This document shows positions 8,842 through 19,069 of a stretch of 32,000 nucleotides of DNA, one piece after another. The notes below the pieces were generated by a model that was not told where the DNA came from, ran no database searches, and saw only the letters and a program-made list of their open reading frames with translations. The stretch is from Promethearchaeota archaeon. Its GTDB lineage: Archaea > Asgardarchaeota > Lokiarchaeia > Sigyniarchaeales > Promethearchaeaceae. The stretch is from positions 30,001 through 62,000 of the forward strand of contig JAFGBS010000001.1 of assembly GCA_016933055.1 (NCBI GenBank), read 5' to 3'. Both the position numbers and the translations under genes were made by a program. Positions within the stretch are counted from its first letter, which is position 1, and each line of letters begins with the position of its first letter.

Positions 8842-9054
8842 TTAGTATACATTTTCTTGAACCCATATACGAAATCCAATTATCCCTATGATACTTATAA
8901 TCGCATATAAAAGATATGGACGGTAATTTATAATTTGGTAAACAAAAGCTGTGATAAACATAGCTATTATACCTAAAATGATAGATACCCAAGAAAAAAA
9001 TAAAATTGCAAGATCAAAAATCTTAGATCGTATATCTTTTTGCTTATCTCCCAT
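8842..9054 (-). CDS. Small 2-TM membrane protein (70 aa)
   Basis: Two hydrophobic helices; GAGTGAT-N4-ATG ribosome-binding site; starts 9 nt after the stop of the S8-like gene. Confidence 0.65.
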   Translation of the reverse strand: MGDKQKDIRSKIFDLAILFFSWVSIILGIIAMFITAFVYQIINYRPYLLYAIISIIGIIGFRIWVQENVY

Positions 9055-9063
9055 TATTATCAC

Positions 9064-12000
9064 TCAATCATAATGTTCTCCGATTTTCTCTCCAAATTGC
9101 CTTAATTCTCGCATGTATTTTCTGACCCTCTTTCGATTTCGGAGGACAAATCGTATTTGTTCTTGTTCATCTTGCGTAATTTCCAGACCTTGTAATATTT
9201 GCTTCATTAAAGATTTGCCTTCATTGATTTTGGTTTTGGCTTGATTTAATAAATCTCCCTTTAGTTGGATAATATTTAGACGGGTTTTCCATTTTTCGTT
9301 GTGATAGAACCATATTAGTAATCCCATTCCAATAATCCAGAGGATCCCAATCATGTCAACCCAAAATGGATAAGCTGCTTGCGGAAATATGTAGGGATCT
9401 ATTTCGGGGGGAGGTTGACCTGGATCAACCTTAAAAGGAACATATATAATCTCTTGAGCAATGGCCGGATGATCGAGTACAAACATAGCGTAATAATTCC
9501 CGGTAACATTATACCACGTAGTATCGTAATACATAGCATAATTACTTATATTTGTGGGAAATACAACAAACGCAGGTAATAAAAACCCAAAAAACGATAT
9601 ATTTACTATTGTTGAATCTTGATACATAAAAGCTGAAATAAATAAGATTCCCTCTGCCAGTAATTCCGAAATATCTTCATAATTTGAGATTTTAGCATCG
9701 AAATAAGTAATGTTCCACAATGAAACTGGATTCTGTGAAAGAGTGATTTCTATATCAAATTGGTTTCCCAATGCAAAATCCAACAGAAAAGCTGCAAATT
9801 CACTATTATTTGCTTGAGATAGGCCTTGAATTGTAAAAATATCCTTATCCCCAGAAACGAAAACTCTACCCCGATTTAAATGTGCTGCAGCCATATAACC
9901 TTCCTCACATAATATCTCGACTAAATTTGCTCTCCCATAACTATTTGAGTTGATAGTTAATTGGACTGGATCTCGTAGAACCAGAGTTCCAATTTCATAC
10001 TCTGAGAAAATGGTCTTTGAAGCGTTCCATGTGTCATCAGAGATTGAAATGGGTCCATTTACTATCGATTGGGAAGATATAGATAAATTTGCATATCCTA
10101 ATAGGGAATTTAAGGAATCTGAATCATTTTCTGTAGAATTTTCTGCCCATACAATTAAACATCCTCCTTTTTCAACCCACTCTATTATATCCTCAATTTC
10201 TTCATCTATTAAGCTGATCTCGGGATCATTCACTATCAATACATCATAAAACTGAAGTAAATCATGATGAATAGTGTTTGTACTAAGGAATTCTCTTTCA
10301 AAACTATATCCTCCTAATAATTTTTGCATAAAAGAGACATCCAGAAAACCCCCCTCCTCTGAAGAATTTATCTCTCCATTAATGATAGAATTAAAATTAC
10401 TTATATAATCTGATATTTCAATGGTAATTCCGGGAAAAAACGTTTGAATAGTGGTTCCTTTAGGCCTTATTGTACTCCACAATTGAGCAAAATCGAAGAA
10501 ATTTCCGTAAGGATAATCTAATCGTTCTTCTAAATCAATTATTTGAGTTAAGTCAACATTACCTATTTCTTTTGTTATATTGGCAAAATTTTTCTCCATA
10601 GATAGGAAATTATGTATACCGTCGAAGAAAATTCTTCCTTGAAACTCACTAAATTCCAATTCAACGGGAATCACATAAAAAATTCCCCCGAATATGGGAC
10701 TTGAAAAAGTAATATTAAATCTAACCACAGAGGGAGGACAAAAGAGTGGTCCGATAGTTAGACAAAATATTGTATCAAATGGGTCCATCGTATGAGTATA
10801 TATCACATCAGAAAACTCTTCAAAGCTTGAGGAATTTTGAGTGCTTTCATTGAGGAGTTGGGAAATAATATCGGGACCAAACCACATTAATTTCATGAAC
10901 TGTTTTCCAGATGAAGAAATTGAAACTGTAACGTCTGGAATCTCTAAAATACCATAAGTAGTGATATTGAAGAGACCAACATCACCAGGAAAGCGGATTT
11001 TCATTGGATTTGCATCCAGTTTTACTGGATGAGTACGAAACGTCTCCTTGAGGATTGATTGATACTGGAATTCTGAAAAGATATACACATTTCGAAACAG
11101 GAAATTATTTAATAGGTTCTCTTCTCTCTCCAAACCTAAAATAACGGGAATTATGGCTACCCATCCAGTTAAATAGATCCCTTGTTCTAAGGGGGTCCAT
11201 TGTTGAGTAACATAATGATAATCTCGGACATCAAAATCTCTGATGGATGATATTTTTGAATAAACTTCTATATAACCCTCATTAGTTGTACGATTTGCCG
11301 CGAAAACTAGATTAGATCTATTGATTTTGGTATTTCCAACGTTTAAGATTAATGCGGTACTGGAATATATCTTATCCACTGGTGCCATCCGTTCGAATTC
11401 AGCTTTAGCAACAACAATATCTTGGATAGGATAGAAACTTACTCTAGAGTTTATGTATCGCATTTGCTCCTTTAATGAGGTTTCGGCTGCGGTAAAAGAA
11501 TCTCCTATTCCCAAAGATAAAATACTGGAGAATTCCAAAGCTTGTCCATAGGATAATTCATTTGTAAGATGCCATTTCATTGCAAATCCTGGATCCTCTT
11601 CTCCCAGAATATAGGATGTAGAATTATCCAAATAACCGTTTTCGGTGCCATTTAGAGTAAGATCAGCAAATAGAGTTATTGATTCGGAAATTTTATAGCT
11701 GTTTAATGAATGACTAGTGGAATTAAAACCGAGTGTCGCATAATTGCTGGAATAGGAGTATTCTGAATTATTGTTTAAATCTGAGACAAGCATTGTCTCT
11801 AAACTTGAATCAAAAGTACATATGTCATCCAATCCAACATCTAGAATTGAACTCAGTCCTCCAGAATTATTCAAAGTAATAGCCCCCGTCTCATTTGCAA
11901 ATAAATCAGATCGAAAATAGGAAATCAAACTGAGGTCATATATCCCTGGAGAATCTCGTAGATTTAAGATGTTTAGGGATATTTTATACCCGTTTACTCT

Positions 12001-16930: not shown

Positions 16931-18050
16931 ACTCCTTTTTTCGTCGTAAGTAGATTAGAGAACCTAGAAAACAAAATAATGAAAAACCCATAAGAAATGC
17001 TAGTTCTTTCCAAATTTCCCACAATCGCATACCTCGATATGCCAGACGGGAGAAACTCCTCATCAAATTTTCTACTGGCAAGAATGGGAGAATGTAAGGA
17101 ATACGGACGAACATAACAAGAATGAACATGACAATAAAAAATAGCAAAAACATTTGAGCTGCCTGTAATCTAGTGCGTGATATAGCAGAAAAGAAAATAC
17201 CTAAAGTAATTCCGCATAATGAACACAAAAAGCAGGCAAAGAATATATCCAAAAAAAGCCCATAAAAGGGAACTGCAAATAATTTGATCATACCCAATGT
17301 TATGAGAATCTGAAAAATGGATACTAAGGAATAGCTTATTGTTTTTCCTATTAGGATCTCACTACTATATAACGGAGTTATCATCAATCGCTTTAATGGG
17401 ATATCTCCTACAATACACTGACTTGTCACAAGATTCATAGTTCCAAATAGGATTAATCCCAACATGATAGGTGCTGAAATCGTAAGTAAATCGTTAAATT
17501 CCACTTCGGGACGCATTTCAGGAATATAAAACACATCACTTTCAAAAACGATGTTTTCAAGCTGAAAGTCCACTAATTTAATTTGAATTAGGAATTCTGA
17601 GATGAATGCAGCAACTGCATCTATCGCATCAATATGCACTACAAGTGTGGTGGATTTGTTTGCAAGGATTTGCACTTCAAAACCTTCATGTAGTATTATA
17701 TAGGCGTTCAATTCAGTTGTGGGTAATAATTCTGCAGCTAGTGCTTCAAACTGTGATGGTGTTGTGAAGGGATTATCATAATTCGTAGTAACTATTATGG
17801 AATCACTTTTTGCCATGGTAGCAATAAATTCATGGGACTTTGCGGAGTCATCATAGTCAATAATCCATAAATTCATTGGGTTATTGAAATACCCTATTTT
17901 ACCTATTCCAATCGTGACCAATACTACAATTGGAATTATGAAAAGGATAAAAAGGGATATTTTATCTTTTAATAAGGAAGTTAGTTCGTTTAGAATGATA
18001 CTCCCGATACGAGAACCACGTTTAGCTAAAGACCTAAAATCTTCTGACAT
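16923..18050 (-). CDS. ABC-2 type exporter permease
   Basis: NELTSLLKDK, IIDYDDS, KRLMITPL...EILIGK; same topology as the neighbouring permease; GGAGTGAT-N4-ATG at 18050. Confidence 0.88.
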   Translation of the reverse strand: MSEDFRSLAKRGSRIGSIILNELTSLLKDKISLFILFIIPIVVLVTIGIGKIGYFNNPMNLWIIDYDDSAKSHEFIATMAKSDSIIVTTNYDNPFTTPSQFEALAAELLPTTELNAYIILHEGFEVQILANKSTTLVVHIDAIDAVAAFISEFLIQIKLVDFQLENIVFESDVFYIPEMRPEVEFNDLLTISAPIMLGLILFGTMNLVTSQCIVGDIPLKRLMITPLYSSEILIGKTISYSLVSIFQILITLGMIKLFAVPFYGLFLDIFFACFLCSLCGITLGIFFSAISRTRLQAAQMFLLFFIVMFILVMFVRIPYILPFLPVENLMRSFSRLAYRGMRLWEIWKELAFLMGFSLFCFLGSLIYLRRKKEYV

Positions 18051-18055
18051 AATTA

Positions 18056-19069
18056 TCACTCCAAATCCGCGATTGATACTCCTCCTTTTAATCGAAAATA
18101 ATCTAAGAAAGTTCCTTTGTCAATTGAGAACGATTTTACGTTGAATTTCATTTCATACAATTGATCTAATATCTTGCTTATATTTCCCGTGTCTTGAACG
18201 AATAATTTTAACTTGTTTCGGCCTGCGTTCAAAACATATTGAACTCCATCAACTCTAAAAATCCTTTCCATTTTTTGTTGGGGATTAAAACTCTCTAACT
18301 CTAATAATACTGATTTTCCATTTGAGGGTAAAGATTCGATTAATTCAACAGGTCGCCCATATCCCGTTACCCGTCCATGATTTAAGATCGCTATTTTAGT
18401 ACAATAATCAACAATCTCAAGGTCATGGGATACGATCACCATTGTGGTTCCAAATTCCTGATTCACTTTTAGGAGAAAGTTCAAGACATCTATTCGAAGG
18501 TGAGGATCCAATCCTGTTGTTGGTTCATCAAGAAAAAGAACACTAGGTGTATTTATCAATCCAACCGCTATAGATACACGCTTCTTCTCTCCTCCCGATA
18601 AATTCTTTACCGGGCGATTTAAGATATCTTCGTCCTCGAATCCCAAAATCGCAAAAATTCTTTTCACACGACTCTTTATTTCCTCAGATGTTAACTGGTA
18701 GTTTCTTCCAAAGAAAATACAATTATCTATAGGATTAAAATCATAATATAAAGAAAGGTATTCGAGTTGCGGGACATATCCAATTTTGTTAACCAATTTT
18801 TCATTATCCTTAATGACATCGCAGTTAGCGGTTCTCACTATTCCTCTATGGGGGCTAATCTGACCGGTTAGGCATCGTAATATGGTAGATTTACCCGATC
18901 CGGAACCACCAATTAAGCCAAGAACTCCTCCTTTTTTCACATCCAAACTTACATTATGCAGTACGATTTTCCTTTTATCATAAGAGACATAACAATTTCT
19001 CATAAAAACGTCCATATCCTCGGTAAAATCAGGATGAATTTCATGTTTTTTTAGGTGGCTTCGTTTCAT
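18056..19069 (-). CDS. ABC transporter ATP-binding protein (CcmA/DrrA-like)
   Basis: Walker A GGSGSGKS, YVPQ, LSGGE, LFLDEPTTGLD, VSHD; C-terminal extension. Confidence 0.95.
   Translation of the reverse strand: MKRSHLKKHEIHPDFTEDMDVFMRNCYVSYDKRKIVLHNVSLDVKKGGVLGLIGGSGSGKSTILRCLTGQISPHRGIVRTANCDVIKDNEKLVNKIGYVPQLEYLSLYYDFNPIDNCIFFGRNYQLTSEEIKSRVKRIFAILGFEDEDILNRPVKNLSGGEKKRVSIAVGLINTPSVLFLDEPTTGLDPHLRIDVLNFLLKVNQEFGTTMVIVSHDLEIVDYCTKIAILNHGRVTGYGRPVELIESLPSNGKSVLLELESFNPQQKMERIFRVDGVQYVLNAGRNKLKLFVQDTGNISKILDQLYEMKFNVKSFSIDKGTFLDYFRLKGGVSIADLE

Follow-up and report, generated by a model that had tools for sequence, protein, structure and literature searches.

The window analysed here is a stretch of 32,000 nucleotides from a Promethearchaeota (Asgard) archaeon (NCBI GenBank assembly GCA_016933055.1, contig JAFGBS010000001.1, positions 30,001 to 62,000 of the forward strand), and it carries six minus-strand open reading frames (ORFs) at 8842-19069. 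They encode two ATP-binding cassette (ABC) ATPases, two permeases, a protein of 1621 amino acids (aa) with an apparently dead subtilase (S8) domain, called the giant protein below, and a small protein with two predicted transmembrane (TM) helices. We propose, with a probability of about 0.6, that the six genes encode a single machine of the Asgard cell envelope: a type V ABC exporter in which the giant protein would act as a GldG-like surface subunit. This reading is supported by the linkage of the genes despite rearrangement, by their co-occurrence and joint loss, by the GIFT domain of the giant protein, and by variant forms in which the giant protein and ATPase 2 differ in a matched way.

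The preliminary description of this DNA, made from the sequence alone, had first given the coordinates and had described six genes joined by 9 nt or less; we found all six ORFs in place, and every junction is a gap or an overlap of at most 9 nt. The spacer 5' of ATPase 1 is 216 nt long and A/T-rich, with a TATA-like A/T-rich stretch (found by eye only) about 55 nt upstream of the gene. The 4.9-kb ORF of the giant protein runs without interruption.

Conservation and joint loss of the gene set

Close homologs of the giant protein were found in Promethearchaeota records only. A sample of 400 genomes of this phylum was searched, and the loci were then fetched and mapped. Members of the giant protein family were present at 28 loci, and ABC genes were adjacent in 23 of them, in at least 10 families of the phylum. 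The preliminary description had staked its proposal on the S8-like gene being linked to these ABC genes in relatives, and at those 23 of the 28 loci the linkage held. The gene set recurs in relatives at 31-37% identity and with different flanking genes; these genes are therefore not neighbours by chance.

At least five gene orders were observed: (1) ATPase 1, permease 1, permease 2, ATPase 2, giant, small (the window, L001-L003, L039 and L040); (2) the same order with ATPase 1 inverted (L038); (3) ATPase 1, permease and ATPase 2 divergent from the giant gene (L043, L044, L054, L057 and L070); (4) permease, ATPase 2, giant, ATPase 1 (L047, L051-L053 and L069, with L050 and L068 partial); and (5) a variant form with a winged-helix ATPase 2 (L042, L045, L064/L065 and L066). 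With respect to composition, the six-gene type, to which the window belongs, has two permeases and the two-TM peptide and has lost the catalytic His of the S8 domain. The four-gene type of most other Asgard lineages has one permease and no small protein, and it retains this His. Two permeases were seen in the window, L001-L003 and L038-L040, and one in the other lineages. Similarly, L001-L003 and L038-L040 have an ORF of 64-74 aa with two TM helices directly 3' of the giant gene, and no other type has one; the L039 copy matches the small protein of the window with E 1.8e-7.

Co-occurrence across the 400 genomes was tallied for the giant protein and for the N-terminal module (N-module) of ATPase 2. 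Scores of the C-terminal profile of the giant protein were bimodal: matches to the full module had E <= 1e-50, those to the GIFT part alone fell at 1e-11 to 1e-32, and presence of the giant protein was defined by the full-module score (E <= 1e-50). A looser presence test, profile A5 with a threshold of E <= 1e-10, was rejected, as it matches generic GIFT proteins in 374 of the 400 genomes. The N-module profile was matched in 137 genomes. Both parts were present in 123 genomes, the giant protein alone in 3, the N-module alone in 14 and neither in 260; the tally was made by hand and related genomes are not independent, so these numbers describe a pattern and are not a statistic. The three genomes with the giant protein alone were a genome of 66% completeness, a fragment and a genome of the variant type, while those with the N-module alone were mostly fragmented assemblies. 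The two parts occur in the same 10 families, and in one of these (f3) in one genus only. Thus, the giant protein and the long ATPase are patchy together and are lost together. Overall, the system is present in about a third of the sampled genomes, including two closed genomes of the window's own family (G134 and G137; loci L039 and L040).

The closed genome G142 presents a case of loss. This genome, from the same family as the window, retains a frameshifted, stop-containing remnant of the N-module (L072, G142:C1:3445021-3445492); the 10 kb flanking the remnant on each side contain no further part of the system, and genome searches found no giant gene. Since the remnant alone is left, the system was lost as a whole.

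Components of the transporter

Judged from sequence matches, the core of the system is an ABC transporter of type V (ABC-2, DrrA/ABCA-like), in which two ATPases that differ from each other are combined with two permeases that likewise differ. ATPase 1 matches Pfam ABC_tran (E 4.4e-29) and the NCBIfam drrA subfamily (E 3.9e-50, under that model's cut-off), and its nearest solved sequences are nucleotide-binding domain 2 (NBD2) and R domain of ABCA1, ABCA3 and ABCA7, with E about 1e-46. In each of the two ATPases, Walker A, Q-loop, signature, Walker B and H-loop are intact, as the preliminary description had read for most of these motifs. Both permeases score above the cut-off of ABC2_membrane_3 (31.6 bits), permease 1 with 77.7 bits (E 1.2e-21) and permease 2 with 50.8 bits (E 1.8e-13), and together with hydropathy these scores identify both as six-helix ABC-2 permeases. 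A sequence search of the PDB with permease 1 gave chance-level matches only and no solved relative.

The ABC domain of ATPase 2 matches ABC_tran at residues 274-416 (E 1.7e-30); residues 1-255, the N-module, have no Pfam match. An AlphaFold2 (AF2) model of the N-module made with 14 homologs (pLDDT 82.3, pTM 0.78) has two copies of a helix plus beta-barrel domain. In VIA-align this model matched TrmB (3qph_A with Z 12.1 and 2f5t_X with Z 11.6, at chain residues about 247-342), and the next match had Z 6.9. In the model, therefore, the repeats resemble the C-terminal subdomain of the TrmB sugar-binding domain; weak Pfam Regulator_TrmB matches (profile positions 160-230) were seen in two distant ATPase 2 homologs only. 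The match is to the C-terminal beta-barrel subdomain, twice in tandem, and not to a complete TrmB sugar-binding domain. In TrmB, most of the ligand contacts are made by the N-terminal subdomain. As only the C-terminal subdomain is present here, ligand binding does not follow for the N-module. An Atlas search with the N-module gave no usable match.

Neither ATPase reached the cut-off of the GldA equivalog model TIGR03522 (402.6 bits), ATPase 1 scoring 130.7 and ATPase 2 scoring 104.8 bits, and no GldF or GldG model of NCBIfam was among the matches at E <= 0.01. The small protein matched neither Pfam nor NCBIfam.

The subtilase head and the ectodomain of the giant protein

The giant protein matches Pfam Peptidase_S8 over the full profile (1-288 of 288, E 2.8e-29) and DUF4350 (E 1.8e-7). 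The best PDB match of the S8 domain was Tk-SP (3afg, E 3.8e-30). The profile also aligns into the propeptide region of Tk-SP (3afg residues 19-339), and Inhibitor_I9 was matched in the propeptide-like region of just one of 14 homologs (E 0.02).

In the alignment to Tk-SP and the homologs, the catalytic Asp is retained (D173, 13411-13413), the catalytic His is replaced by R220 (13270-13272), the Ser by G433 (12631-12633) and the oxyanion Asn by D313 (12991-12993). The His is missing in all 14 close homologs. Among the family members, the Ser position mostly has Ala, Gly or Thr; the Ser itself is found in four members only (P0013 and its locus copy L002, L046 and L056). The oxyanion Asn is an Asp in every family member but P0003, and P0003, like all the others, lacks at least one catalytic residue. 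We observed that loss of the His is confined to the six-gene type and that distant members retain both Asp and His (GHGT). In the four-gene type the Ser is replaced in most members and the Asn in every member examined. By these alignments, the giant protein is an S8 pseudoprotease that has kept the fold and has not kept the catalytic triad and oxyanion Asn. The preliminary description had called the protease dead, a claim that extends to the whole family, since the catalytic set is incomplete in every member examined. A 935-aa protein with an intact triad (L055) was considered as a family member and rejected.

Mean pairwise identity among 11 full-length homologs was 58% in the S8 domain, 47% in the C-terminal tail, 36-40% in the middle region up to the TM helix, and 17-26% in the N-terminal signal and propeptide-like regions. 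The dead head is thus the best conserved part of the giant protein, which argues for a selected pseudoenzyme rather than a decaying gene; the identities indicate purifying selection on both the S8 head and the tail.

The middle region is family-specific. It had no match in Pfam and none in PDB sequences (its profile gave chance-level matches only). A CARDB match appeared in one of the 14 homologs, and an Atlas feature match to CARDB / NPCBM_assoc clusters at 0.85 serves as a lead only. The region is probably a stalk of beta-sandwich modules. The ectodomain contains 33 N-x-S/T sequons, compared to 15.3 +/- 3.4 in shuffled sequence, and the tail contains none. Such a distribution fits a glycosylated surface protein, and the ectodomain is probably glycosylated and surface-exposed.

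The giant protein also has weak NCBIfam matches to CspC_non_triad and CspBA (CspC at residues 314-370, E 1.3e-12). As a separate observation, the window genome encodes a second large S8 protein (G000:C6:52868-53866; L005, L006), with an ORF of 1326 aa that is 38% identical over the S8 core.

The C-terminal membrane module

The presence of a true GIFT (ABC_transp_aux-type) domain follows from both profile and fold. In the window protein, DUF4350 scored 32.0 bits (cut-off 30.4) and ABC_transp_aux 15.9 bits (cut-off 34.7). Among the 14 homologs, IFT52_GIFT was matched in 10, with a maximum of 39.3 bits (cut-off 27.2), and ABC_transp_aux in 11, with a maximum of 36.6 bits. A profile of the C-terminal part found IFT52 GIFT domains as the only solved relatives (5fmr, E 8.8e-9). 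The AF2 model of residues 1150-1621 had pLDDT 69.8, with 73-89 in the GIFT part, and VIA-align superposed the GIFT domain on IFT52 with Z 15.7 and a root-mean-square deviation (rmsd) of 2.8 A over 160 aa. The analogy to GldG that the preliminary description drew through this domain is therefore sustained by DUF4350, IFT52_GIFT, ABC_transp_aux, 5fmr and VIA-align alike.

With respect to the whole module, the top Foldseek matches were OST48/DDOST and yeast Wbp1: 6s7t_G (E 3.9e-13, about 417 columns), 6c26_B, 6ezn_G and 7oci_G. In VIA-align, OST48/Wbp1 gave Z 13-14.1 over 259-280 aa of GIFT and beta-sandwich with an rmsd of about 13 A, and the alignment to 8b6l_N covered the TM helix as well. The module has the architecture of OST48/Wbp1, that is, GIFT, beta-sandwich and single TM helix. 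No OST48 match of Pfam was seen in any family member scanned; the Pfam OST48_N search of the window's own genome gave no match, and the control likewise matched nothing anywhere. The S1P structures 9csd_A and 8uw8_A matched with Z 11 over the GIFT domain only. Pfam MBTPS1_4th was found in two of the 14 close homologs (best E 9.7e-5) and in L042 (35.9 bits, cut-off 27), and it had no match in the window protein. S1P was not among the 60 best solved sequences for the S8 domain.

In these comparisons the term 'S1P-like', used in the preliminary description, holds for the order of domains. It does not hold for the domains themselves: the S8 domain is nearest to Tk-SP and the subtilisins, MBTPS1_4th is not matched in the window protein, and the C-terminal module is nearer to IFT52 and OST48/Wbp1. 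In the models, the membrane-proximal half is at least as OST48/Wbp1-like as it is S1P-like.

A word-indexed search for stand-alone copies of the C-terminal module gave two fragments only, and three proteins of ~390-400 aa considered as such copies (P0034, P0036 and P0066) were truncated gene calls on inspection. In an exhaustive search with the module, OST48, GldG and S1P were too distant to rank among the 150 matches listed. Other GIFT proteins of the same genome (L073-L076) had no ABC genes within about 1.5 kb, in flanks that were short. Seven proteins of about 1900-4100 aa have 6-10 separate GIFT-domain stretches each (P0035, P0039, P0051, P0055, P0062, P0069 and P0070).

Variant forms of ATPase 2 and of the giant protein

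In nearly all members of the family, those at unlinked loci among them, the hairpin tail that follows the TM helix is conserved up to its final residues. Giant proteins without this tail were found at L042, L045 and L064 (the last being P0045), and each of them pairs with a variant ATPase 2 in which ~310 N-terminal residues form tandem winged helices instead of the TrmB-like module. The genome G125 has both forms: a tail-less giant protein beside a winged-helix ATPase 2, and a tail-bearing giant protein whose TrmB-type ATPase 2 is encoded elsewhere. Pfam matches of the variant ATPase were PCI (E 1.4e-11), E3_UFM1_ligase (E 7e-11) and DDRGK (E 2e-7); UFL1 and DDRGK1 are eukaryotic UFMylation proteins associated with the endoplasmic reticulum.

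At two of the variant loci a gene of the OST3/OST6 family (PF04756, 27.2 bits; L045:11511-12110 and L064:664-1266) lies two genes past the winged-helix ATPase. Between the two is an unannotated protein of 376-377 aa, and the OST3/OST6 gene is not present at L042. This neighbour may be a link to N-glycosylation, though a thin one. In three genomes of family f26 (G297, G298 and G299), one repeat of the N-module is matched by short ORFs of 158-166 aa that stand alone (E about 1e-11), and a protein of ~1274 aa matches the GIFT and beta-sandwich part only; the system may exist here in a split or reduced version.

Comparison with known systems

Judged by its parts, the closest known systems are the gliding-associated GldA/GldF/GldG transporter of Bacteroidota and the generic 'ABC-type uncharacterized transport system' operons (Pfam ABC_transp_aux), in which an ABC ATPase, an ABC-2-type permease and a membrane-anchored GIFT accessory are likewise combined, and where the substrate is unknown too. 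The Asgard system differs from GldAFG in several respects. It has two different ATPases, one with the 255-aa TrmB-like N-module; its permeases are of the ABC2_membrane_3 family with large outer domains and not of the GldF type; its accessory protein, ~3 times as large as GldG, also includes a dead subtilase, a long stalk, a beta-sandwich and a cytoplasmic hairpin; a two-TM peptide is added; the host is an archaeon, and the equivalog thresholds are not reached. The preliminary description knew of no characterised system with this composition, and as far as the literature search reached this still stands: no paper was found that combines Asgard with GIFT or DUF4350 or that describes the system.

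In OST48/DDOST (yeast Wbp1), too, a GIFT-type alpha/beta domain is followed by a beta-sandwich, a single TM helix and a short cytosolic tail. On the other hand, the Asgard module has no OST48 Pfam match, its domain orientations differ (hence the large rmsd), and it forms the C-terminal end of a 1621-aa protein whose gene accompanies those of an ABC transporter and not STT3. WBP1/OST48 homologs in Asgard archaea have been reported only from Heimdallarchaeia (Eme et al. 2023, PMC10307638).

IFT52 is the best single-domain match by both profile and structure. However, it is a cytosolic protein of the ciliary train without a TM helix, whereas the GIFT domain here is extracytoplasmic and membrane-proximal. 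S1P (MBTPS1/SKI-1) shares the order of signal, propeptide, S8 domain, spacer, GATase-like/GIFT domain, TM helix and basic tail. It differs in being an active protease with no ABC partner, and the middle region of the giant protein has no detectable counterpart in S1P; the nearest relatives of the S8 domain also include the classical subtilisins beside Tk-SP.

CspC and CspA of Clostridioides difficile likewise use a subtilase fold without a complete triad for binding or signalling. They differ, being soluble proteins of the spore that lack a GIFT domain, a TM anchor and an ABC partner, and the matches to them cover ~55 residues far below the cut-offs. Finally, FtsEX-EnvC is a precedent for a machine made of an ABC transporter and a pseudo-enzyme, with an ABC ATPase and permease coupled to an extracytoplasmic dead hydrolase homolog. 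FtsX has the type VII (MacB-like) and not the ABC-2 fold, EnvC is a separate soluble protein of the LytM type, and neither is homologous to the parts of the Asgard system.

Proposed mechanism

In the machine that we propose, the giant protein would reach the cell surface by way of its N-terminal signal, stay anchored in the membrane through the one C-terminal helix, and play the role that GldG has for GldA/GldF. Outward from the membrane, the order would be the beta-sandwich, the GIFT domain, the long and probably glycosylated stalk, and the dead subtilase head, most likely a binding module. On the cytoplasmic side, the hairpin may contact the TrmB-like N-module of ATPase 2, a suggestion that comes from co-variation only, as tail-less giants pair with the winged-helix ATPase 2. 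Such a contact would couple ATP hydrolysis to the surface protein across the membrane, and the N-module would gate the activity from the cytoplasm. The transporter would extract a membrane-embedded lipid or lipid-linked glycan and hand it to, or past, the ectodomain. In the order of Asgard archaea to which the window belongs, the two-TM peptide and a second permease would have been added, the catalytic His being lost as well.

We infer the physical association of the parts, the contact between tail and ATPase, the lipid or glycan cargo and the gating role. Coupling of the giant protein to the ABC motor is, in our estimate, somewhat better than an even bet; any specific cargo is put forward with much less confidence.

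Several observations weigh against the proposed machine. Five of the 28 loci are unlinked (L041, L046, L048, L049 and L056). In favour of the machine, each of the five genomes nevertheless encodes a TrmB-type ATPase 2, on a different contig; in the two genomes of f20 (L058, L059) a permease lies 3' of it, and none was seen within the short flanks fetched for the three loci of f5 (L060-L062). One permease with two ATPases, as in most lineages, is an unusual and unexplained stoichiometry. The co-variation of tail and N-module amounts to two related families of one class and is thus probably one evolutionary event. Co-folding of the N-module of ATPase 2 (alignment A4) with the giant tail (residues 359-437 of alignment A6) gave an ipSAE of 0.00 in both runs, which were made without controls, and this speaks neither for binding nor against it. 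Mapping of two metatranscriptomes of the source study to the locus yielded only a 37-nt match, in the Walker region. The cargo is suggested by analogy only, from the type V / ABCA-like class and from sugar-linked associations of GIFT domains, and no gene of the locus points to a substrate. Genes for glycosyltransferases or lipid synthesis are not among the conserved neighbours of the system, and STT3/AglB is on another contig. Finally, GldAFG itself is not understood mechanistically.

Alternative explanations

The best-placed alternative, which we nevertheless regard as rather unlikely, is a sensor or mechanotransmission machine that moves no cargo. The head would bind an extracellular peptide, protein or glycan, and the TM helix and tail would signal to the ATPases. 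In a variant of this reading, ATP hydrolysis would move or activate the ectodomain. FtsEX acts in this manner with the degenerate peptidase EnvC, and substrate sensing by transporters of the BceAB type is similar. The pseudoprotease head being the most conserved domain fits a sensor well, and S8 pseudoproteases are known as receptors (the NCBIfam CspC model matched weakly here is named 'bile acid germinant receptor pseudoprotease'). The conserved cytoplasmic tail and the TrmB-fold module would suit transmembrane signalling, and the lack of linked substrate-synthesis genes is as expected for it. However, the permeases are type V ABC-2 exporters and do not have the MacB/FtsX type VII fold of mechanotransmitters, comparison of the relatives found no transcription factor or kinase conserved in the locus, and both ATPases are intact, as for a working pump.

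It is improbable, in our view, that the giant protein is the client of a transporter dedicated to exporting, glycosylating or anchoring it, for example by supplying a lipid-linked glycan. Dedicated transporters beside giant adhesins act in this way, and strict co-occurrence and linkage would be explained equally well; the sequon-rich ectodomain, the OST48/Wbp1 fold of the C-terminal module and the OST3/OST6-family gene near the variant ATPase 2 in one lineage point in the same direction. Against this, the giant protein has its own N-terminal signal and C-terminal TM anchor, for which insertion of the Sec type suffices, and no ABC-2 exporter is known to translocate proteins. Neither the conserved cytoplasmic tail nor its co-variation with the N-module is explained, and STT3 is unlinked.

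A protease with a non-canonical active site, in which another nucleophile would stand in for the Ser where Asp and His are kept, is very improbable. The distant members with the GHGT motif and the canonical Ser at three loci (L002, L046 and L056) would agree with it, but the window protein lacks the His, the Ser and the oxyanion Asn together, every member lacks at least one catalytic residue, with P0003 alone retaining the Asn, and most members have Ala, Gly or Thr in place of the Ser. Least credible of all is an ABC-2 efflux pump that happens to lie beside a decayed protease gene: it would agree with the absence of direct interaction or co-expression data, but not with a linkage that outlasts rearrangements over deep divergence, with parts whose patchy occurrence and losses coincide, or with an intact 4.9-kb ORF whose dead domain is conserved best.

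Gene boundaries and genomic neighbourhood

Coordinates of the genes, domains and neighbours are given in Table 1. The ORF of the giant gene is open as far as a TTG at 14082, and this codon was rejected as the start because the homologs begin at the MxRK position, which corresponds to the ATG at 13929.

Table 1. Features of the system, its neighbours in the window, and variant ATPase genes in relatives (positions are those of the window unless a locus is named)
Feature	Position	Strand	Length or residues	Description
ATPase 1	18056-19069	-	337 aa	DrrA/ABCA-type ABC ATPase with C-terminal regulatory-type extension (by sequence matches)
Permease 1	16923-18059 (GTG; alternative ATG at 18050)	-	378 aa	ABC-2 (type V) permease; TM1, ~140-aa extracytoplasmic domain, TM2-6 (hydropathy)
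Permease 2	15755-16930	-	391 aa	second, diverged ABC-2 permease; topology as permease 1
ATPase 2	13931-15745	-	604 aa	long ABC ATPase
ATPase 2, N-module	14981-15745	-	residues 1-255	cytoplasmic; two tandem helix + beta-barrel domains (model)
ATPase 2, ABC part	13931-14980	-	residues 256-604	ABC nucleotide-binding domain and C-terminal domain
Giant protein	9064-13929 (from ATG)	-	1621 aa	predicted GldG-like surface subunit
Giant, N-terminal region	13449-13929	-	residues 1-160	signal/anchor helix (about 9-27), then poorly conserved propeptide-like region (hydropathy)
Giant, head	12430-13448	-	residues 161-500	S8 (subtilase) domain, predicted catalytically dead
Giant, middle region	10375-12429	-	residues 501-1185	family-specific; 16 N-glycosylation sequons
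Giant, GIFT domain	9760-10374	-	residues 1186-1390	GldG/IFT52-type, GATase1-like (about 1230-1389 in the AF2 model)
Giant, beta-sandwich	9400-9759	-	residues 1391-1510	membrane-proximal (strands 244-353 in model numbering; about 1393-1502)
Giant, TM helix	9301-9369	-	residues 1521-1543	single C-terminal TM helix (hydropathy; model helix 373-401, to ~1550)
Giant, tail	9067-9300	-	residues 1544-1621	cytoplasmic helical hairpin (model helices 410-435 and 439-466; about 1559-1615)
Small protein	8842-9063 (alternative ATG at 9054)	-	73 aa	two hydrophobic helices (hydropathy); six-gene type only
DsbD_2-type membrane protein	7990-8814	-	274 aa	Pfam E 2.9e-8; start 28 nt past the small gene
EAP30/Vps22-36-like protein	7250-7972			E 2.7e-10
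Arf/Ras-like small GTPase	6259-7143			130-aa N-terminal extension
Weak Yip1-domain protein	5039-6109			E 3.4e-4
Variant ATPase 2	L042:8074-9954			winged-helix form
Variant ATPase 2	L045:7902-9764			winged-helix form
Variant ATPase 2	L064:2959-4818			winged-helix form
Variant ATPase 2	L066:1291-3201			winged-helix form

Directly downstream of the small gene is the gene of a DsbD_2-type membrane protein. No obvious T-run separates the two, and this gene may be co-transcribed with the six; it was not found downstream of the system in L001-L003. Further downstream, three genes have eukaryote-like trafficking matches (5039-7972), and they are not conserved beside the system in relatives. The upstream neighbours, at 19988-22285 on the minus strand, code for a choloylglycine-hydrolase/AAT-type Ntn hydrolase (338 aa) and for an acyl-CoA dehydrogenase (403 aa). 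Both are unrelated to the system, and neither is conserved next to it.

The complete locus is from a sediment metagenome of 2021. In a 2017 hot-spring metagenome, 19 short contigs are at least 99% identical to the locus (window 8700-19300), and the same or a very close strain may thus live in both the hot spring and the sediment.

Implications

A further reading, which we hold to be unlikely, concerns evolution: the C-terminal module would be an archaeal forerunner of OST48/Wbp1, of the C-terminal half of S1P, or of both, and the machine would export lipid-linked glycans (or lipids) that feed surface glycosylation. If it were true, subunits of the OST48 type would have started out as accessory proteins of an ABC exporter for glycolipids and joined the oligosaccharyltransferase later, and the hairpin tail with the N-module of the ATPase would be a new coupling of a surface protein to an ABC motor across the membrane.

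For the proposed machine itself, the finding means that about a third of the sampled Asgard genomes encode a large, conserved, energy-consuming surface machine with no assigned function. Its accessory protein combines a protease fold, preserved by selection without the ability to cut, with a membrane module. The best structural matches of this module are eukaryotic (IFT52, OST48/Wbp1 and, more weakly, S1P), and the module therefore bears on the origin of those eukaryotic proteins. The two ATPases, one of which has a regulator-like N-module that appears to co-vary with the tail of the giant protein, offer a testable coupling of a type V ABC transporter to an outside partner. Understanding this system could also clarify the GldAFG and ABC_transp_aux systems of bacteria.

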